From: a virus
DNA: 5,804 nucleotides
IMG/VR virus record: IMGVR_UViG_3300023699_000001
Coordinates: 1-5,804 of that record
Direction: 5' to 3' (one strand)
Positions 1 through 5,804 of the stretch are shown one piece after another; the first letter of the stretch is position 1; the number at the start of each line of letters is the position of its first letter. The translations under genes were made by a program, and so were the position numbers. The notes beneath the pieces were generated by a model. The model was not told the DNA's origin. It did not search any database and saw nothing but the letters and a program-made list of their open reading frames with translations.

Positions 1-38
1 ACGTATAAACGTGCAATCAGAAATGTTTGCGGACGGAA
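1..38. repeat. Terminal overlap, copy 1 (identical to 5767..5804)
   Basis: acgtataaacgtgcaatcagaaatgtttgcggacggaa occurs at both window ends, 38/38 identical by direct reading. It lies inside the VP1 reading frame, so it is a circular-contig overlap and not a biological terminal repeat. Confidence 0.95.
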
Positions 39-1513
39 TGCCAATGAACGGCATAGCAGTAAATGTATATGCACACGCAGTATCACAAGCATGCTATGAA
101 CGTTTTGGCGGTAGCATTGATGAGGTAAACAAATCATATGCAAAAGAAAATGGTGCCGCAGGAAGTGTAATACCATTTTTTGAATCAAATAAATATTACA
201 TACCATCAACAAATTCAGTTGGAGCATCAGGATTTCCACAAAATGTAGATACAAATTCAATAGCTGGTGGTGATACTGCTACTGATATATTTTATCAAAC
301 ACTGGGTATACATTATCAATCATCAACACATATTAATTCAACAATAGTTGAAGCATACAATGCAATAGTTAATCATAGACGCAAAGCACGTTCAAAATCG
401 TTACCACTTAGAAATCCATACGATCATAGATTAGCAGAAGCATTTTGGTTAAATACTGGATATAATGATATTGTTGCAGATTTTGACGCTAAGTTATTAG
501 ATGGCGAAGTTTCATTGCAAGGATTAACATTTCAAGCGCCAATTAAATCATTAAAAGCATCAAGTAATAAAACTGCTGCAAATAATGATACATTTACTGG
601 ATCATATGGATACTCACCCGAACAATTGGGGTCATCAATTGTTGATGAAGGCGATTATTATTTATTTGATGAAATTTTTGCAGAATTGCAAGCTGGCGGT
701 AATGCAACAATGTCATTAGCTGATTTAGATCAGGCACGCAAAACAGTAGCATATGCAAAAATGCGTAGTAAGTATGATTGGATAACAGACGAGTATGTAA
801 TCAATTTACTTATGCAGGGGATCACGATTCCATCATTATTGCAAACACAACCAATATTAATTGGTAAAAAATCAACAATGTTGAATTTTAATGAACGTTT
901 TGCAACAGATGGCGCAAACTTAGATACTAAAGTTGCGAACGGATCTGCTACAATTGATATGAATATATCAACACCACGTATGCCATACGGCGCTGTAATT
1001 ATGTATACAATGGAAGTTGTGCCAGAACAGTTATGGGAACGGTCAAAAGATCCGTTTTTATACACAACAGACACAGATACATTGCCAAACAGTTTACGAG
1101 ATACATTGGATCCGCAGAAGGTGCAAACTGTCAAGGCAGATACACTCGATGTAAATCACAGTACGCCTAATTCTACATTTGGCTATCAACCATTAAATAA
1201 TCAATGGAAAATGGATTGCGTCCGTGTAGGTGGTAAATTTTACCGTCCTGCAAACGATGCATTCACAGAGGATAGGCAAAAGCTGTGGGGTTGTGAAACT
1301 TTGAATCCGACTCTCTCGGAAAGCCACTATTTGGTCAAAGATCTCCATAAAAAGATCTTTGCAGATCAAGTGGCGGATAGTTTCACAGCTACAGTAATGT
1401 CGGATTTAAAAGTTTCCGGCAACACAGTCTTCGGAACATCGTTGCTCGAAGCTGACGCATCAAGTGACTATGACACAATAACTGCGCAAGTGGATTCCTC
1501 CCGTATCGCGTAG
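1..1513 (+). CDS. VP1: Major capsid protein VP1 (Microviridae F/VP1 family), 3' portion. The 5' portion is at 5609..5804 because the circular genome was linearised inside this gene.
   Basis: The frame is open to the window edge (first full codon starts at 2; the ATG at 11 is internal). 5609..5804 translates MRMTELLTTTPIAQRRSVRGLKKRILTSFDAGKIIPLSYEWLHREDAVQSGRVRINVQSEMFADG. Its last 38 nt equal 1..38, so the pieces join in frame: 158 + 1513 = 1671 nt, 556 aa, stop TAG 1511-1513. Size, N-terminal pattern (SFDAGKIIPL) and neighbours (VP4 Rep, VP2-like) fit microvirus VP1. The family call is by recollection, not by search. Confidence 0.9.
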   Translation, partial: RINVQSEMFADGMPMNGIAVNVYAHAVSQACYERFGGSIDEVNKSYAKENGAAGSVIPFFESNKYYIPSTNSVGASGFPQNVDTNSIAGGDTATDIFYQTLGIHYQSSTHINSTIVEAYNAIVNHRRKARSKSLPLRNPYDHRLAEAFWLNTGYNDIVADFDAKLLDGEVSLQGLTFQAPIKSLKASSNKTAANNDTFTGSYGYSPEQLGSSIVDEGDYYLFDEIFAELQAGGNATMSLADLDQARKTVAYAKMRSKYDWITDEYVINLLMQGITIPSLLQTQPILIGKKSTMLNFNERFATDGANLDTKVANGSATIDMNISTPRMPYGAVIMYTMEVVPEQLWERSKDPFLYTTDTDTLPNSLRDTLDPQKVQTVKADTLDVNHSTPNSTFGYQPLNNQWKMDCVRVGGKFYRPANDAFTEDRQKLWGCETLNPTLSESHYLVKDLHKKIFADQVADSFTATVMSDLKVSGNTVFGTSLLEADASSDYDTITAQVDSSRIA

Positions 1514-1521
1514 TTATGTAT

Positions 1522-1558
1522 AGCGGGGTAGCCCTCCCCTACCCCGCTTATTTTTATT
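1522..1558 (+). terminator. Rho-independent terminator-like hairpin downstream of VP1
   Basis: Perfect 10-bp stem agcggggtag (1522-1531) / ctaccccgct (1539-1548) with 7-nt loop ccctccc, followed by ttatttttatt. It begins 9 nt after the VP1 stop. Confidence 0.75.
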
Positions 1559-1573
1559 AAAAAGGAAAAAAAT

Positions 1574-2092
1574 ATGAATAGAATAAAACACGGACAAATT
1601 AATAAATGGTTTCCTGCACAGGCAGGAGAAGTACTAGAATTTGTCGCAAACAAACCGCGTCACGTAAAATTTGAAGTAACAACAAATTCAAATATAGAAA
1701 TTTGGGTTGCAACAAACAAAAAAATGCAAGATGCAATTTTAGTTGGAACAAGTGACGCAAAAACAGAAGTTCAATACACGGCAAATGAAACAACATATTG
1801 CCAAATAAAGGCTCAAAAAGGTTCAGCAGTATTTGTAAATCTTCCAGATTTAGATCAAACACGTGTGCAACCTGATGAAGCTGTATATACTAATATTGAG
1901 CCTCGAATAAATCAAAGCACTGAATTTGATCGTATGATGCAATATATGAAGCATAACGAGGCAATACGTAATCAAGAACTTGAGGCAGAACGTGCACAGC
2001 TACGTGAAGCAATACGCAATTTAGAAACAGCACCAACGCCAGAACCAATAGTAGAGGCAGAAACAGAAGATGCAGGAGAAACCACCACATAA
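1574..2092 (+). CDS. Hypothetical protein, 172 aa: beta-rich N-terminal ~100 aa, then a helical, acidic C-terminal tail. Possibly a scaffolding or decoration protein; function unknown.
   Basis: ATG 1574 is preceded by aaagga (1561-1566) at 7-nt spacing. It lies on the same strand as all core genes and fills the space between the VP1 terminator and the peptidase gene. The C-terminus reads ...EAERAQLREAIRNLETAPTPEPIVEAETEDAGETTT. I recognise no family motif. Confidence 0.65.
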   Translation: MNRIKHGQINKWFPAQAGEVLEFVANKPRHVKFEVTTNSNIEIWVATNKKMQDAILVGTSDAKTEVQYTANETTYCQIKAQKGSAVFVNLPDLDQTRVQPDEAVYTNIEPRINQSTEFDRMMQYMKHNEAIRNQELEAERAQLREAIRNLETAPTPEPIVEAETEDAGETTT

Positions 2093-2678
2093 ATTCTTTA
2101 GGTGGGTTTGGTTTTTAGACCGCATCCAGTTCTGGCATAAAGACGATCTAGTCCATCGGCGTTACGCTGATGCGGCTAGGTCGTTGGCAGTACCAAAAGA
2201 CCATTCAATATGGAAAAAAGTGCGCACAGAAGAAGCAGACTATAAAGGAGCACATTCCGATATAGTTGAATTCTTTAAAGCATTTCAAAAAGCTTGTCAT
2301 AAGAGGAATATACCTCTTAGAGCTTTTGAATTTGTACGTACTGCAGAACGCCAACAAGAATTATACGAAAAAGGCTTTACTAAAGCTCAAGCCGGTTTTG
2401 GCGCGCATCAATACGGGATGGCTTGCGATTGTATCGTAGGACATCTCGGTTGGAGCCTGTCAAAAAAGCAGTGGGCATGTCTTATCGCAATCGGAAAAGA
2501 GGTTGCAAGACGTAGGAATATAAAAATCGACAGTGGTTACGACTGGGATTTTTGGGATCCTGCCCATTGGGAATTGGAAGGTTGGAAAGAAATGATTGCT
2601 CCAAAGCAACCAGACAAACCTTACAAAAAAAACAAATTTTACGATATCAAAACAGGAAAATTACATGAAATTGAATAA
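2070..2678 (+). CDS. Peptidase M15 family zinc cell-wall hydrolase (VanY / L-alanyl-D-glutamate or D-Ala-D-Ala peptidase-like), putative lysin
   Basis: The translation carries the M15/LAS zinc-ligand pattern H-x6-D ... H. AHQYGMACD has H113 (cat 2406-2408) and D120 (gat 2427-2429); DPAHWE has H166 (cat 2565-2567). The upstream conserved R-x-x-E-x-Q-x-x-L-Y element is present as RTAERQQELY. The start is ambiguous. ATG 2070 overlaps the previous ORF by 23 nt and has a poor SD. An in-frame GTG at 2220 would give a 152-aa catalytic-domain-only protein. Confidence 0.8.
   Translation: MQEKPPHKFFRWVWFLDRIQFWHKDDLVHRRYADAARSLAVPKDHSIWKKVRTEEADYKGAHSDIVEFFKAFQKACHKRNIPLRAFEFVRTAERQQELYEKGFTKAQAGFGAHQYGMACDCIVGHLGWSLSKKQWACLIAIGKEVARRRNIKIDSGYDWDFWDPAHWELEGWKEMIAPKQPDKPYKKNKFYDIKTGKLHEIE
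2215..2223 (+). repeat. Copy 1 of recurrent word AAAAAGTGC
   Basis: Exact 9-mer, read directly. Its GTG (2220-2222) is in frame with the peptidase ORF. TATAAA follows at 2241-2246. Confidence 0.6.
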
Positions 2679-2820
2679 TTTCACTAGGAACGCACGGCAC
2701 GGAAACTCCATATATTGGAGTGACGTGCGTTCCGCAATTACACTCCTCTTGTTAGGTAATGCCTCTGATGACACCTTTTTGACTTTAGGCAAAAAGTGCA
2801 TCGAGGTAAAAAAGCTATAA
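2665..2820 (+). CDS. Doubtful small ORF, 51 aa (MKLNNFTRNARHGNSIYWSDVRSAITLLLLGNASDDTFLTLGKKCIEVKKL)
   Basis: This is the internal ATG of the 2596..2820 track ORF. A weak SD agga (2654-2657) sits at 7-nt spacing, and the ORF would fill the peptidase-rep gap. However, it runs straight through the 2687-2733 hairpin, and I recognise no motif. Confidence 0.2.
   Translation: MKLNNFTRNARHGNSIYWSDVRSAITLLLLGNASDDTFLTLGKKCIEVKKL
2687..2733 (+). promoter_or_regulatory. Compound stem-loop in the peptidase-rep intergenic region
   Basis: Perfect 10-bp outer stem ggaacgcacg (2687-2696) / cgtgcgttcc (2724-2733). Inner 6-bp stem actcca (2705-2710) / tggagt (2716-2721) with loop tatat. Tandem gcacg-gcacg (2692-2701) allows register slippage of the outer stem. 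Confidence 0.5.
2791..2799 (+). repeat. Copy 2 of recurrent word AAAAAGTGC
   Basis: Exact 9-mer, 32 nt upstream of the rep ATG. TATAAA follows at 2816-2821. The word also forms the 3' arm of a weak hairpin (ctttttg 2775-2781 / caaaaag 2790-2796). Confidence 0.6.
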
Positions 2821-2830
2821 AGTTCTAGAT

Positions 2831-3871
2831 ATGTGTTTAACTCCCATAACATTAGACAACGGATCACAAGTTGCTTGTAAAGATTGTTGGCAGTGTAAAA
2901 GGCGGAAAGTTCAAGACTATGTAGGACGCGCAATAGCTGAAAGCAAATCGTCCACGAAGACATTTGCTGTAACATTAACCTACGGAGACGACAGTTTAAA
3001 AGAGCATGAAAAGGCTCATGCTGTCGTATTATGTTACAAAGACGTTCAGGATTTTTTGAAAAGATTGAGAAAAAACTATAACGTAAGATACATCGTGACT
3101 GGCGAATATGGAACAGCCAAGTCAAGAAGCCACTGGCACATAATACTCTTCTTTCAAGGAGATTATCCACACGTGCCAATGGAAAGGAGAACAAATTGGA
3201 CATATTGGAAAAAAGGATTTTCCTATTTCCAACAAGGTATCGACATAAAAGGATTTGAGTATTGTCTCAAATACGTCCTAAAGGACACAAACTCAGAAAC
3301 AAGCGAAAGTCATTTCGCAATGAGTACAAGGCCACCTTTAGGGCACGAATTTTTTCAAAAACTCGCAACACAACACGCAATTCAAGGATTAGCACCACAA
3401 AGTTATTTTTATAAGTTTGGAGATGTAAGGGATTACAAAAATCGGGACAAAGGTTTTATGATGAATGGGAAAACAAGAGAAAATTTTATGAGTAAATTTA
3501 TTGATGAATGGTACGCAAGATACCAACATCCACCCATTTCAGACATAGTAGACGAATTTATCGATAAAAATACAGATTTGTATTACACAGATGAAGAATT
3601 AGAAAAACGTCTACATTATAAACCAGTAAGATATATCGAGCCATGGCAACAGCCTGAGGGGCGAGGTTTATTAGATAAGACACAACTTGTTGAGGCAACA
3701 TATGACGGAATACCAATTTATTATTGGGAACACGAAGAACATAATGAACTTAAAATATATACGGAAACACAAGAATGGGTAGAAAAACGAGACGAAGTCG
3801 TAAAAACAATAAAAGATGGTTCGGTAATAATAAAAAAACAAAAACTAACAGAGTTCTGGAACGGATCCTAG
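2831..3871 (+). CDS. VP4: Rolling-circle replication initiation protein VP4 (HUH endonuclease, phiX gpA-like)
   Basis: The N-terminus MCLTPITL...CKDCWQCKRRK is typical of microvirus VP4. RCR motif 1 is FAVTLTY (aa 45-51). HUH motif 2 is HWHIILF (cac tgg cac at 3131-3139). Motif 3 is YCLKYVLK with two tyrosines four residues apart (tat 3260-3262, tac 3272-3274), as in the phiX174 A protein. Stop TAG 3869-3871. Confidence 0.93.
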   Translation: MCLTPITLDNGSQVACKDCWQCKRRKVQDYVGRAIAESKSSTKTFAVTLTYGDDSLKEHEKAHAVVLCYKDVQDFLKRLRKNYNVRYIVTGEYGTAKSRSHWHIILFFQGDYPHVPMERRTNWTYWKKGFSYFQQGIDIKGFEYCLKYVLKDTNSETSESHFAMSTRPPLGHEFFQKLATQHAIQGLAPQSYFYKFGDVRDYKNRDKGFMMNGKTRENFMSKFIDEWYARYQHPPISDIVDEFIDKNTDLYYTDEELEKRLHYKPVRYIEPWQQPEGRGLLDKTQLVEATYDGIPIYYWEHEEHNELKIYTETQEWVEKRDEVVKTIKDGSVIIKKQKLTEFWNGS

Positions 3872-4179
3872 GTCGCAGACGGACTGGCGGATCGAGGCCA
3901 CGGATATCTTTGATATCCCCCAAACCCCCCACTTTGGGGGGTTTGGGGGGATTTCTTAAATCCCCCCATCAAAACAAAAATGCGCGCTCGCGCGCTCAAT
4001 TTCGCCGCACAACACGTGACCACGTCTCAGAAGCCCTATCAAAAACAAATAGGTCGGATAAAAAGCCGCGCTTCGGTTGTAAGGATAAACCACGTCAAAG
4101 AGACCGCACTACGGGTTCTGGTGGTGGAAATAACGAAATAAACAAACAATTACCGAAAAAATACATTCCTTGGTGTTAA
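3775..4179 (+). CDS. Doubtful overprinted ORF, 134 aa, extremely Arg/Lys-rich
   Basis: It is open for 134 codons in the frame -1 relative to rep, overlaps the rep 3' end by 97 nt, then crosses the G/C hairpin cluster and the GC-rich island. It has only one ATG and a weak SD. The C-terminal third uses genome-typical codons (ggt, aaa, caa, tta). It could be a chance ORF. Confidence 0.25.
   Translation: MGRKTRRSRKNNKRWFGNNKKTKTNRVLERILGRRRTGGSRPRISLISPKPPTLGGLGGFLKSPHQNKNARSRAQFRRTTRDHVSEALSKTNRSDKKPRFGCKDKPRQRDRTTGSGGGNNEINKQLPKKYIPWC
3902..3967 (+). promoter_or_regulatory. Cluster of three adjacent or overlapping stem-loops built on C5-6/G6 runs. Candidate ssDNA origin element or rep terminator.
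   Basis: H1: ggatatc (3902-3908) / gatatcc (3912-3918), loop ttt. H2: cccccaaacccccc (3917-3930) / ggggggtttggggg (3936-3949), 14 bp, loop acttt. H3: ggggggattt (3945-3954) / aaatcccccc (3958-3967), 10 bp, loop ctt. Full-length H2 competes with H1 and H3. A trimmed H2 (3922-3930 / 3936-3944, 9 bp) lets all three coexist. Confidence 0.6.
3982..3997 (+). repeat. Tandem direct repeat GCGCGCTC x2 (alternating CG)
   Basis: gcgcgctc at 3982-3989 and 3990-3997. It can also fold as gcgcg (3982-3986) / cgcgc (3991-3995) with loop ctcg. The CACGTG palindrome lies nearby at 4013-4018. Confidence 0.7.
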
Positions 4180-4246
4180 AAAGATACAAAAAAATAAAAA
4201 AAAGACTTTACAAATCAAATTTTATAAGTCTACAAATACATATGGG

Positions 4247-4276
4247 GTGACACAAGAGTTTCAAATTGATCATAAT
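4247..4276 (+). promoter_or_regulatory. Candidate sigma70-type promoter for the small-ORF/VP2/VP1 block
   Basis: gtgaca (4247-4252; 5/6 to TTGACA), an 18-nt spacer, then cataat (4271-4276; 5/6 to TATAAT). It sits in the most AT-rich part of the window. My hand counts are 13/60 G+C for 4141-4200 and 17/60 for 4201-4260. The host is unknown, so the consensus may not apply. Confidence 0.3.
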
Positions 4277-4285
4277 ATATATTAT
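4272..4285. repeat. Perfect 14-nt palindrome ATAATATATATTAT
   Basis: Self-complementary on direct reading. It overlaps the candidate -10 box and resembles the inner arms plus spacer of XerCD dif sites. Confidence 0.7.
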
Positions 4286-4305
4286 CGGCCATTTGGACAC
4301 TTCAC

Positions 4306-4324
4306 CCTTCTTATAAAGAAGGAG
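4306..4324 (+). promoter_or_regulatory. Shine-Dalgarno of the 59-aa ORF, partly sequestered in a small hairpin
   Basis: ccttctt (4306-4312) / aagaagg (4316-4322), 7 bp, loop ata. The 3' arm overlaps the SD gaaggag (4318-4324), which lies 6 nt upstream of GTG 4331. Confidence 0.35.
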
Positions 4325-4336
4325 TAAAAAGTGCAA
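4324..4336 (+). repeat. Copy 3 of recurrent word, extended 13-mer GTAAAAAGTGCAA
   Basis: Identical 13-mer to 5548-5560. It contains the proposed GTG start at 4331. Confidence 0.6.
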
Positions 4337-4510
4337 TTACTACTAATACAACAAATCCTAAAACCAGTAATCACAAGATGTGGTACAATTCTCGGTTCGT
4401 CGCTTGCCGGCGCCGGAATAGCCGTCGGTGATACGGAAAGTATCGTTTTAGGATTCACTGCACTAGCAGGAGTCGCGATCGATCTTATTACTAGGAGATG
4501 GATCAAATGA
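4331..4510 (+). CDS. Small membrane protein, 59 aa, two predicted TM segments plus a basic C-terminus. Holin/pinholin-like candidate.
   Basis: Not in the ORF track (GTG start, under 60 aa). An in-frame TAA at 4325-4327 means GTG 4331 is the first possible start. SD gaaggag lies 6 nt upstream. Translation: (M)QLLLIQQILKPVITRCGTILGSSLAGAGIAVGDTESIVLGFTALAGVAIDLITRRWIK. The stop TGA 4508-4510 overlaps the next ATG (ATGA). The track ORF 4282..4506(-) is its antisense shadow. Confidence 0.6.
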   Translation: MQLLLIQQILKPVITRCGTILGSSLAGAGIAVGDTESIVLGFTALAGVAIDLITRRWIK

Positions 4511-4602
4511 AATTAAAAGACATTATAATAGCAACAGTTGCCGGAATAATAATGGGTATAGCCCTATTTTCTGATGTCTTAATGAATACGGGAGCATTAT
4601 AA
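4507..4602 (+). CDS. Small single-pass membrane peptide, 31 aa
   Basis: ATG 4507 overlaps the upstream stop (ATGA). SD aggag (4493-4497) lies 9 nt upstream. Translation: MKLKDIIIATVAGIIMGIALFSDVLMNTGAL, with a hydrophobic core at residues 6-21. The stop TAA 4600-4602 directly abuts the VP2-like ATG 4603. Confidence 0.5.
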   Translation: MKLKDIIIATVAGIIMGIALFSDVLMNTGAL

Positions 4603-5544
4603 ATGGGAAATGAAACTTGGCGCGATGAAATAGAGTTTGGAGTTGGGTATGCAACTGGTAACCCTCTTGCGGCAAAAGTAGCAGGATGGGCATGGGATGC
4701 TTACACAAAAAACAAACCAAAAAAAAATACTGGTCACCCATCTGGCGGAACAGCCGATGGCAAACCAAATTACAATTACGGCGATTTAGCTAGCATAACA
4801 ATGCAAGCCGCCGCCGCGAGAAAATCACGTAAACAACAAGCGCAAGCAACGCAAAACGCAGGCAAGCTTGATCTAGGATACCTACGTCAAGAAGCTGAAA
4901 ACAATGGATTTAATCCATTAACAGTTTTGCAATCAACAGGCGGTGCCGGAAGCACAAAATCACCAAATGCAGGCTTATTAGCCTCGTCACAATTTTGGGC
5001 AACATATGCTGACGGTTTAGGCGAACTAAACAACAGGCAATATGAGCAAGGATTAATAGACGCAAACAAAAAACCTGAAAAAACAGAACGAGAAAAGTTT
5101 ATTGATCAATATAGAGTTCCATTATTAGTACCAGTTACAACTGGTGGAATGGACGGTGAAACAAACGTTAGTTATATGACAATAAACCCTGAATTAATGG
5201 AAACTCGTATGAGTGAATTAATGGGTTCAATGTTTGTTCAAGGTATTCAATACACATATCAAAATGGCGTTAATTTTAAAGGATTTTTAGACGCAGTTAA
5301 GGGTTTACCACCTGCTTTTACAAAATCATTAGAAAATTTATATGAACTTTTTGATGGAGAAGTGCCAACAGAAAAAGAATTAAAAGCCGCTGTTGCAAAA
5401 GAATTGGGTAAACAAGGCGCAGATATGCTTGGTGAGTATTTGCAAAGCAAATTACCAAAGAAAAATACAAGCATTAAAGAAAGCACTCTTCCACCACATG
5501 AATACGAATACAATATGTATGACGACACATATAAGAAAAAATAA
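4603..5544 (+). CDS. VP2: VP2-like minor capsid / DNA pilot protein, 313 aa
   Basis: SD ggag (4591-4594) lies 8 nt before the ATG. The size fits, with a Gly/Ala-rich N-terminus, a Gln/Ala-rich stretch (KSRKQQAQATQNAG) and EAENNGFNPLTVL, which resembles the AGLNP-type motif I recall from microvirus VP2/pilot proteins. It lies directly upstream of VP1. Coding status is near certain; the family call is moderate. Confidence 0.7.
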   Translation: MGNETWRDEIEFGVGYATGNPLAAKVAGWAWDAYTKNKPKKNTGHPSGGTADGKPNYNYGDLASITMQAAAARKSRKQQAQATQNAGKLDLGYLRQEAENNGFNPLTVLQSTGGAGSTKSPNAGLLASSQFWATYADGLGELNNRQYEQGLIDANKKPEKTEREKFIDQYRVPLLVPVTTGGMDGETNVSYMTINPELMETRMSELMGSMFVQGIQYTYQNGVNFKGFLDAVKGLPPAFTKSLENLYELFDGEVPTEKELKAAVAKELGKQGADMLGEYLQSKLPKKNTSIKESTLPPHEYEYNMYDDTYKKK

Positions 5545-5547
5545 TGT

Positions 5548-5560
5548 GTAAAAAGTGCAA
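5548..5560 (+). repeat. Copy 4 of recurrent word, extended 13-mer GTAAAAAGTGCAA
   Basis: Identical to 4324-4336. It lies in the VP2-VP1 spacer, 49 nt before the VP1 ATG. TATTAA follows at 5576-5581. Confidence 0.6.
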
Positions 5561-5608
5561 AAAAATAAGAAAAATTATTAAGCAAATCATTTTAAGGAGA
5601 AACAAAAA

Positions 5609-5804
5609 ATGAGAATGACTGAATTATTAACAACCACGCCAATAGCACAAAGGCGAAGTGTAAGAGGCCTTAAAAAAAGGATTCTTACAAGCTTTGATGC
5701 AGGCAAGATAATACCTTTATCTTATGAGTGGTTACACAGAGAGGACGCAGTACAATCTGGACGTGTACGTATAAACGTGCAATCAGAAATGTTTGCGGAC
5801 GGAA
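5609..5804 (+). CDS. VP1: Major capsid protein VP1, 5' portion (continues in frame at position 39 of the window / position 1 of the circle)
   Basis: ATG 5609 (a second ATG lies at 5615), with SD aaggag (5594-5599) 9 nt upstream. The frame is open to the window end and continuous with 1..1513 through the 38-nt overlap (5777 - 5609 = 168, a multiple of 3). Confidence 0.9.
   Translation, partial: MRMTELLTTTPIAQRRSVRGLKKRILTSFDAGKIIPLSYEWLHREDAVQSGRVRINVQSEMFADG
5767..5804. repeat. Terminal overlap, copy 2 (identical to 1..38)
   Basis: See copy 1. It defines a unit length of 5,766 nt. Confidence 0.95.

Follow-up and report, generated by a model that had tools for sequence, protein, structure and literature searches.

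Here, we report that p59, a protein of 59 amino acids encoded just upstream of the DNA pilot protein gene in a microvirus genome (IMG/VR virus record IMGVR_UViG_3300023699_000001, positions 1 to 5,804; the whole 5,804-nt stretch is called the window below), is a candidate two-helix holin for the M15-family metallopeptidase encoded by the same genome, and that p31, a 31-residue product of the gene in between, is a candidate clade-restricted single-pass membrane partner of p59. Textbook microviruses lyse the host by means of a single small protein, no enzyme being involved. A cell-wall peptidase is carried by a large group of Alphaproteobacteria-infecting microviruses, and the passage of this peptidase across the inner membrane is not addressed in the microvirus literature that we searched. 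On a computational basis, we hold with moderate confidence that p59 is the holin through which the M15 endolysin acts. The original prediction, made by a model from the letters of the window, had proposed such a holin as the completion of a holin/endolysin system, and this stands as the best-supported reading because p59 is predicted to be a small hairpin protein, has family ties to a holin family of Pfam, and co-occurs with an M15 peptidase that has no export signal.

With at least 558 clusters, a tie to the peptidase and a fixed slot in the genome, the p59 family offers a candidate for the missing holin that is concrete and can be tested. If true, a complete holin-endolysin system fits into a genome of less than 6 kb, and a gene that is now deposited as 'hypothetical' or left uncalled in microvirus genomes receives a name. 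A family so small and so conserved could serve as a convenient model holin, and cultured relatives exist, i.e., the CRPss roseophages and the Rhizobium chaparroviruses and chicoviruses.

The p59 family and its link to Pfam PF23987

A profile made from 14 diverse p59 homologues retrieved 48 proteins, including 'hypothetical proteins' encoded directly upstream of VP2, the pilot protein, in Rhizobium, tortoise and flying-fox microviruses. The chicovirus-type relatives match Pfam PF23987 (Phage_holin_10, the family of bacteriophage holin Pam3 gp28) at 25.6 to 32.2 bits, the cut-off being 27, and UniRef calls one of them 'Pam3-gp28 family putative phage holin'. When the p59 core family was compared by hhalign with the PF23987-positive members, the two aligned end to end over 70 columns with 95% probability (E=3.4e-8). 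Please note that the core alignment was built without the chicovirus-type members; the link is therefore independent of how the profile was seeded.

An exhaustive HMMER search of 1.84 billion protein representatives placed at least 558 clusters in the family at E≤1e-3 (98 at E≤1e-10), and nearly all of the 150 listed are 58 to 110 amino acids long. PF23987 is matched by 25 of 146 family representatives at E≤0.01, with no other family recurrent, and a marine CRPss-type member (P0098) gives E=0.0019 at 18.6 bits, below the 27-bit gathering threshold. These profile comparisons show homology between the p59 family and the PF23987 members, the window protein itself having no match to the model. All contexts of family members that were inspected are microviruses or integrated microvirus prophages; tblastn of two members against 50,697 phage records returned microviruses only, and a related-locus search with alignment A6, aimed at members in tailed phages, found nothing.

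Conservation and selection

Using jackhmmer, we found a p59 homologue wherever a related IMG/VR or GenBank locus extends over the region, in each case flanked by the gene of a basic protein and VP2. The ratio of non-synonymous to synonymous substitution rates (dN/dS, by the Nei-Gojobori method) is 0.02 to 0.16 for p59 and 0.07 to 0.17 for p31 in distant pairs. The comparison of p59 with that of the related locus L011 is illustrative: 27 differences are synonymous and three non-synonymous (dN/dS 0.021, dS 1.10); the ratio is 0.065 against L016 and 0.040 against L021. In pairs with saturated synonymous divergence (dS around 1), p59 has a dN/dS of 0.02 to 0.07 and keeps 88 to 95% identity where VP1 (the capsid protein) keeps 61 to 62%, the peptidase 58 to 66% and VP2 31 to 48%; taken more broadly, the identity of p59 is 81 to 95% against 60 to 62% for VP1. 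p59 is the best-conserved protein of the genome. Its dS is similar to that of the other genes, indicating that the conservation comes from selection on the protein and not from recent recombination or constraint on the DNA. Both p59 and p31 are real genes under strong purifying selection, and the look into related microvirus contigs that the original prediction had proposed found both genes kept in place with low dN/dS.

Co-occurrence with a peptidase that has no export signal

The M15 peptidase of the window has the HxxxxxxD and H-W-E motifs, and its homologues are annotated as M15 family metallopeptidases. Its N-terminus, MQEKPPHKFFRWVWFLDRIQ..., reaches a peak Kyte-Doolittle value of 0.78 and contains neither a signal nor a signal-anchor-release (SAR) segment. 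The same is true of all ten M15 peptidases examined (peak values of 1.35 or less), in line with what had been read from the window alone, and the enzyme accordingly needs a route across the inner membrane.

In a set of 26 complete genomes from GenBank, peptidase and p59 are both present in 18 and both absent in six; two genomes have the peptidase and no p59, and none has p59 and no peptidase (Fisher p=1.2e-4, uncorrected for phylogeny). Another 23 IMG/VR relatives of the peptidase-negative clade have neither gene. On a VP1 neighbour-joining tree, joint absence arises twice, once in the Ciona clade and once in CRPss-154, which is nested within the marine clade that carries the peptidase, p59 and p31. 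The two genomes with the peptidase only, Tortoise microvirus 70 and a rat microvirus, have another membrane protein of 62 to 77 amino acids in the p59 slot. Non-orthologous replacement is common among holin genes, and from its sequence and position the protein in the slot, which is of the type of Gp1 of Rhodobacter microvirus Ebor, looks like such a replacement.

Several observations concern the genomes around this pattern. By eye, a motif VLPxLxxxGx7PxxxxAFCA is common to this slot protein, to Ebor Gp1 and to an unannotated 41-aa open reading frame (ORF) of ICBM5. The motif family lies upstream of VP2 at L075 67-204 (Ebor Gp1), L074 359-484 (ICBM5), L052 4858-5091 and L053 4646-4834, spanning Tainavirinae and the two Occultatumvirinae-like genomes that have the peptidase and no p59. 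The one marine isolate without the peptidase, p59 and p31, CRPss-154 (L050), carries a gene for an HNH endonuclease between Rep and VP2 and, at the peptidase position, an unrelated 191-aa protein with no family match (the regions noted are L050 1130-1669 and 5145-5720). The proteins found at the peptidase position in peptidase-negative genomes had no match in PHROG or Pfam, and a scan of IMG/VR with the CRPss-154 VP1 gave no confirmed related locus. In the clade without peptidase and p59, a few genomes carry a small ORF just upstream of VP2 with a lipoprotein signal and a lipobox LTGC, LAGC or VSAC (L060 4676-4882, L061 4573-4803, L062 4102-4473, L102 952-1092 and L103 2401-2520). The mature peptide is Cys-rich and about 20 to 33 amino acids long, and such an ORF is present in only 3 of 22 IMG/VR relatives; by sequence, these ORFs are reminiscent of small lipoprotein lysis proteins.

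M15 peptidases have been reported in Microviridae since 2012 (PMC3394797), and the microvirus peptidase has been proposed as a lysis enzyme (PMC3394797, PMC11499846, PMC9512667, PMC9753089, PMC11980548). The microvirus literature searched, these papers included, holds no proposal of a holin for microviruses. The original prediction regarded a split lysis system as something not normally associated with Microviridae; for the endolysin half this does not hold, as it is known from PMC3394797, from PMC11499846 and from Ebor Gp7 (PMC11980548), and for the holin half it does. The novelty would thus be a distant member of a holin-annotated family and a holin half not previously described for microviruses, partly anticipated by automated annotation.

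Anatomy of p59

In the AlphaFold2 model of p59, two helices span residues 2-27 and 32-58 and the chain turns at G29; the confidence of the model is moderate (pLDDT 67.6). Of the two hydrophobic segments, the first, rich in Gly, Ala and Ser, is weak, its Kyte-Doolittle value over 17 residues being 1.44 for the window protein and 0.84 for its CRPss homologue; the C-terminal one reaches 2.11 and includes an Asp, and the tail that follows is basic. P12, R16, G18, L25, G29 and D51 are near-invariant in the family. Over the 146 family representatives, Lys and Arg are almost absent at positions 17-54 with the exception of position 28 (13%), i.e., basic residues are confined to the part before position 17 and the part after about position 55, and they occupy position 16 in 97% and position 15 in 55% (K11 and R16 in the window). 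Acidic residues are found in the loop at positions 31-36, most clearly at position 33 (67%). The charge pattern and the model fit a small helical-hairpin membrane protein with both ends predicted to be cytoplasmic. The likeness to class II holins that had been claimed would fit the two helices of the model and the charge pattern; the weak first segment and the short uncharged stretches speak less clearly for two membrane-spanning helices. There is no dual start in the window, which has a single GTG; the CRPss homologues have GTG-x-ATG, reading MSM.

Translational coupling and p31

The three starts GTG 4331, ATG 4507 and ATG 4603 are each preceded by a Shine-Dalgarno sequence (SD), 6, 9 and 8 nt away, within the 6 to 9 nt given by the original prediction, and both junctions are as it described: the p59 stop TGA (4508-4510) overlaps the p31 start as ATGA at 4507-4510, and the p31 stop TAA (4600-4602) abuts the VP2 start (TAA-ATG at 4600-4605). 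That the arrangement is beyond chance is borne out by p59 homologues at every related locus covering the region and by p31 junctions kept in four marine sub-lineages. Coupling to VP2 is found in every lineage, in the form of an ATGA overlap, a TAA-ATG abutment or a TAATG overlap. The ORFs had been called unannotated, which is only partly right; the homologues CRPss155_02 and CRPss251_02/_03 are deposited as 'hypothetical protein', so the genes are not wholly unannotated. An alternative p31 start at ATG 4498, giving 34 residues, directly contacts the SD, and in several relatives the counterpart of ATG 4507 is the sole start; the 31-residue product is therefore the conserved form and the 34-residue one is unlikely.

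In several lineages, a strong SD is followed by GTG or TTG as the start codon of p59: GTG in the window, TTG in L003, L011, L016 and L023, and one or the other in the L03x group. Such a weak start codon suggests deliberately low translation of p59 relative to the downstream genes.

The hydrophobic core of p31, IIIATVAGIIMGIALFS, has a Kyte-Doolittle value of 2.52 over 17 residues and a summed Hessa-scale value of -1.7, which agrees with the single transmembrane helix foreseen for it. A single-pass ORF of 29 to 32 residues that overlaps the p59 stop and abuts or overlaps the VP2 start is present in the window group, in CRPss-15x, in CRPss-251 and in the L027-L044 group, and the four subtypes align almost gap-free. 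p31 is limited to marine clades; the Rhizobium, tortoise and flying-fox genomes examined have no second small ORF, and their p59 overlaps or just precedes VP2. Scans of p31 against Pfam, PHROGs and NCBIfam gave chance-level matches only (e.g., a PHROG holin at E=0.094). The original prediction had also offered a spanin-like role, which is ruled out: p31 is 31 residues long with about 20 in the membrane, and it has no Cys, no lipobox and no periplasmic domain. We also rejected p31 or p59 as a detached N-terminus of VP2, as VP2 keeps its Gly-rich hydrophobic N-terminal segment regardless, in genomes with and without p59 and in CRPss-155, which has p31. Most economically, p31 may be seen as a partner or regulator of p59.

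Proposed lysis mechanism

Briefly, our model is as follows. A late transcript that would run from the promoter-like match upstream of p59 to the terminator-like hairpin after VP1, both being consensus matches, would carry p59, p31, VP2 and VP1. From it, p59 would be translated from its weak GTG or TTG start behind a strong SD, and p31 and VP2, judging from the junctions, by coupling. p59 would then insert into the inner membrane as a hairpin whose two termini face the cytoplasm, as its charge pattern suggests, and at a critical level it would oligomerize and open the membrane, the near-invariant Gly residues and Asp51 probably serving packing or triggering. By analogy with canonical holin-endolysin systems, the cytoplasmic M15 enzyme could now reach and cut the peptidoglycan, and the cell would lyse. 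More speculatively, p31 might modulate p59 or co-assemble with it, as an antiholin-like timer or as a second holin subunit; we regard this last step as doubtful.

A number of points weigh against p59 as a holin. The joint loss of peptidase and p59 comprises only two independent events. There is no lysis-cassette adjacency, with about 1.65 kb, holding Rep and the basic-protein gene, from the end of the peptidase gene to the start of p59, and p59 is coupled to a structural gene, VP2, rather than to the peptidase. The uncharged stretches of p59 are only about 14 to 17 residues long, and helix 1 is weakly hydrophobic. p59 of the window has no match in Pfam (PF23987 at E≤0.1), PHROG or NCBIfam, and Foldseek found nothing in BFVD that matches its model at E≤0.001, a comparison in which helical hairpins are uninformative. 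The holin name of PF23987 derives from the annotation of cyanophage Pam3 gp28 and not from a tested function; the part of the Pam3 literature that was searched contains no evidence of gp28 acting as a holin and no paper on gp28. Five family members on long contigs all lie in integrated microvirus prophages, none beside a tailed-phage endolysin. Finally, conservation above that of the capsid protein is unusual for a holin and could reflect a specific protein partner.

Alternative explanations

The coupling to VP2 in every lineage, together with the extreme conservation of p59 and p31 and with glycine-zipper-like segments in both that resemble the Gly-rich N-terminus of VP2/H proteins, speaks for p59 and p31 as membrane accessories of VP2, either aiding its insertion or assembly or forming part of a DNA-delivery conduit, an alternative already named in the original prediction. 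It is weakened by the fact that p59 is missing wherever the peptidase is missing, yet VP2 is always present, and VP2 keeps its own Gly-rich N-terminus with or without p59, which leaves no split-off VP2 segment to be supplied. In addition, Ebor virions hold significant amounts of VP1, VP2 and Gp10 only, the small proteins encoded upstream of VP2 being undetected (PMC11980548), although tryptic mass spectrometry easily misses small hydrophobic peptides and Ebor has no p59 homologue. We consider this reading unlikely. The conservation of p59 beyond that of the capsid, the invariant Arg, Gly and Asp and the constant VP2 coupling also led us to consider that p59 and p31 form a conserved membrane complex with VP2 that couples assembly or DNA passage to membrane opening, or that p59 binds a specific, conserved envelope protein of the host; to this, too, we assign a low probability.

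Single-gene lysis is established in phiX174-type microviruses (PMC3394797), and high conservation with invariant R16, G18, G29 and D51 would suit a protein that recognizes a conserved membrane protein of the host. Alone or together with p31, p59 might then be amurin-like and kill or lyse the cell with no holes made for the peptidase, inhibiting a conserved protein of envelope synthesis as phiX174 E inhibits MraY, with the peptidase as an auxiliary. The tight co-occurrence with the peptidase is unexpected if p59 alone suffices; moreover, the family is linked to a holin-annotated Pfam family and the gene is free-standing, not embedded in another frame. We find this quite improbable. A membrane function outside lysis, e.g., superinfection exclusion or a function expressed by the prophage, with the genes at the edge of the integrated genome, may come to mind from the position of p59, which is first after the dif-like and promoter-like sites and at one end of integrated prophages, and small membrane proteins often mediate exclusion. 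Exclusion genes, however, are usually variable accessories and not the best-conserved gene of a genome; co-loss with the peptidase would be left without a reason, and the gene is coupled to late structural genes, all of which makes such a function very improbable. The small size of the ORFs is the one point that could speak for frames left open by chance in an intergenic leader; this reading is refuted by frame, length and position kept at saturated synonymous divergence, by the synonymous excess (27 versus 3) and by 558 clusters among 1.84 billion proteins.

Genome organization and the dif-like site

The closest cultured relatives of the window virus are the Roseobacter phages CRPss-151 to -155, with about 66% nucleotide identity over part of the genome; these have been assigned to the proposed Occultatumvirinae (PMC11499846). 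The window virus, a marine single-stranded DNA phage, is itself a member of this proposed subfamily, and the window consists of its complete circular genome of 5,766 nt and a 38-nt terminal redundancy. All genes lie on the plus strand (Table 1). The identity of VP2 is given by its jackhmmer family, to which proteins annotated as pilot proteins in CRPss-154 and Tortoise microvirus 46 belong. The promoter-like match upstream of p59 has the top sigma-70-like score in the window, and from it a presumed p59-p31-VP2-VP1 transcript would extend to the hairpin after VP1.

Table 1. Genes and signals of the window (positions are those of the 5,804-nt stretch)
Feature	Positions	Strand	Remarks
VP1	5609 across junction to 1513	+	capsid protein
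Intrinsic-terminator-like hairpin and T tract after VP1	1522-1558	+	presumed transcript end
172-aa protein	1574-2092	+	occupies slot expected for scaffolding protein
M15-family metallopeptidase, 202 aa, presumed endolysin	2070-2678	+	Pfam VanY E=2.9e-4; PHROG endolysin E=2.2e-12
Rep/VP4	2831-3871	+	
Basic 134-aa protein	3775-4179	+	overlaps Rep 3' end
Sigma-70-like promoter match	4247-4276	+	GTGACA, 18-nt spacer, CATAAT; 10/12; consensus match only
SD of p59, AAGGAG	4319-4324	+	6 nt before GTG 4331
p59, 59 aa, GTG start, candidate holin	4331-4510	+	ORF, homologues, dN/dS, AlphaFold2, family profile, PF23987 link
SD of p31, AGGAG	4493-4497	+	9 nt before ATG 4507; within p59 coding sequence
p31, 31-aa single-pass membrane peptide, candidate holin partner/regulator	4507-4602	+	hydropathy, positional homologues, dN/dS
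SD of VP2, GGAG	4591-4594	+	8 nt before ATG 4603; within p31 coding sequence
VP2/H-type DNA pilot protein, 313 aa	4603-5544	+	last gene of coupled p59-p31-VP2 chain

p59 is the first gene after the promoter-like site and a conserved dif-like site. The latter is a quasi-palindrome at 4265-4292 with the core CATAATATATATTATC at 4271-4286, 45 to 90 nt upstream of p59; it is present in a single copy in the genome, with 0.03 matches expected by chance, and is conserved at the same intergenic position in three marine subgroups with differing flanks. The site of L035 reads GGGCTCGCATAGTATATATTATGTTAACA, for comparison with GGTGCGCATAATGTATATTATGTTAAAT of Escherichia coli dif. It has been stated that dif motifs were not identified in Occultatumvirinae prophages (PMC11499846). 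In the integrated microvirus prophages that we inspected, a p59-like gene is at one end and Rep at the other, the order being p59-like gene, VP2, VP1, the genes of two proteins (about 215 aa, then about 180 aa) and Rep. Prophage ends at the p59-like start and the Rep end are as expected for XerCD integration at the dif-like site.

The basic protein upstream of p59 ends in a C-terminal motif (F/Y)(V/I)PWC in nearly all lineages examined, including ICBM5 (RRGFIPWC); in the Ciona genome L062, FRKWC stands in its place. This protein probably corresponds to Gp10, a virion protein of Ebor, and to the DNA-binding proteins J/VP8. Within its ORF, just past the Rep stop, there is a strong G/C hairpin at 3916-3950 with a 16-pair stem, CCCCCAAACCCCCC...GGGGGGTTTGGGGG, followed by a T-rich run, and nearby, at 3982-3995, a GCGCGC-GA-GCGCGC palindrome; the two could be a terminator or a replication/packaging signal. 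A nested inverted repeat was read from the sequence between the peptidase and Rep genes (2687-2733), GGAACGCACG ... CGTGCGTTCC around ACTCCA-TATAT-TGGAGT, and overlaps an ORF of 51 to 74 aa kept in close relatives only.

Comparison with known systems

Members of PF23987 are like p59 in their length (52 to 90 amino acids), their two helices and the pattern P...R.G...L...G ... D/N-L. Against this model, chicovirus-type members of the p59 family reach the cut-off (28.6 to 32.2 bits), marine members fall below it and p59 of the window has no match.

Canonical class II holins of double-stranded DNA phages, which have two membrane segments and both ends in the cytoplasm, resemble p59 in their small size, in a hairpin (predicted for p59) that is basic at its two cytoplasmic ends, and in a C-terminal tail that carries charge, and they are likewise partnered with a muralytic enzyme that has no export signal. 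In contrast to them, p59 is not encoded beside the endolysin, shows no dual start in the window, and has short uncharged segments of which the first is weak; it is also far more conserved than is typical, and its carrier is a single-stranded DNA phage of 5.8 kb.

The pinholin S21 68 of phage 21, to which the original prediction had likened p59, has a weak Gly/Ala/Ser-rich first segment, a stronger second one and a basic tail, as p59 does. The analogy fails on other grounds, and we rejected a pinholin model. The M15 partner has neither a SAR domain nor a signal, and a pinhole would not release a folded cytoplasmic enzyme. The basic residues just before helix 1 are conserved in p59, with 97% Lys or Arg at position 16; this argues against helix 1 leaving the membrane and would hold it there.

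With phiX174 E and other single-gene lysis proteins of small phages, p59 has in common that it is a small membrane protein of a microvirus and is expressed together with late genes. Gene E lies within gene D in another reading frame; its product has a single membrane segment, at the N-terminus, and acts with no phage muralytic enzyme, whereas p59 is encoded by a free-standing gene that, among the 26 GenBank genomes, occurs only where the M15 peptidase does.

Ebor, of the sister subfamily Tainavirinae, is a parallel in gene order: as here, a dif site is followed by a small membrane protein, VP2, VP1, further genes, the lysin and Rep. Its lysin Gp7 has been shown biochemically to degrade peptidoglycan; Gp1, the small membrane protein, and Gp2, both encoded upstream of VP2, were undetected in virions by liquid chromatography-tandem mass spectrometry, and the authors proposed no holin (PMC11980548). 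Ebor Gp1 differs from p59 in belonging to another sequence family, and the p59 profiles give no match in Ebor. Taken together, the slot upstream of VP2 is filled, in microviruses that encode a lysin, by small membrane proteins that are not homologous to one another.

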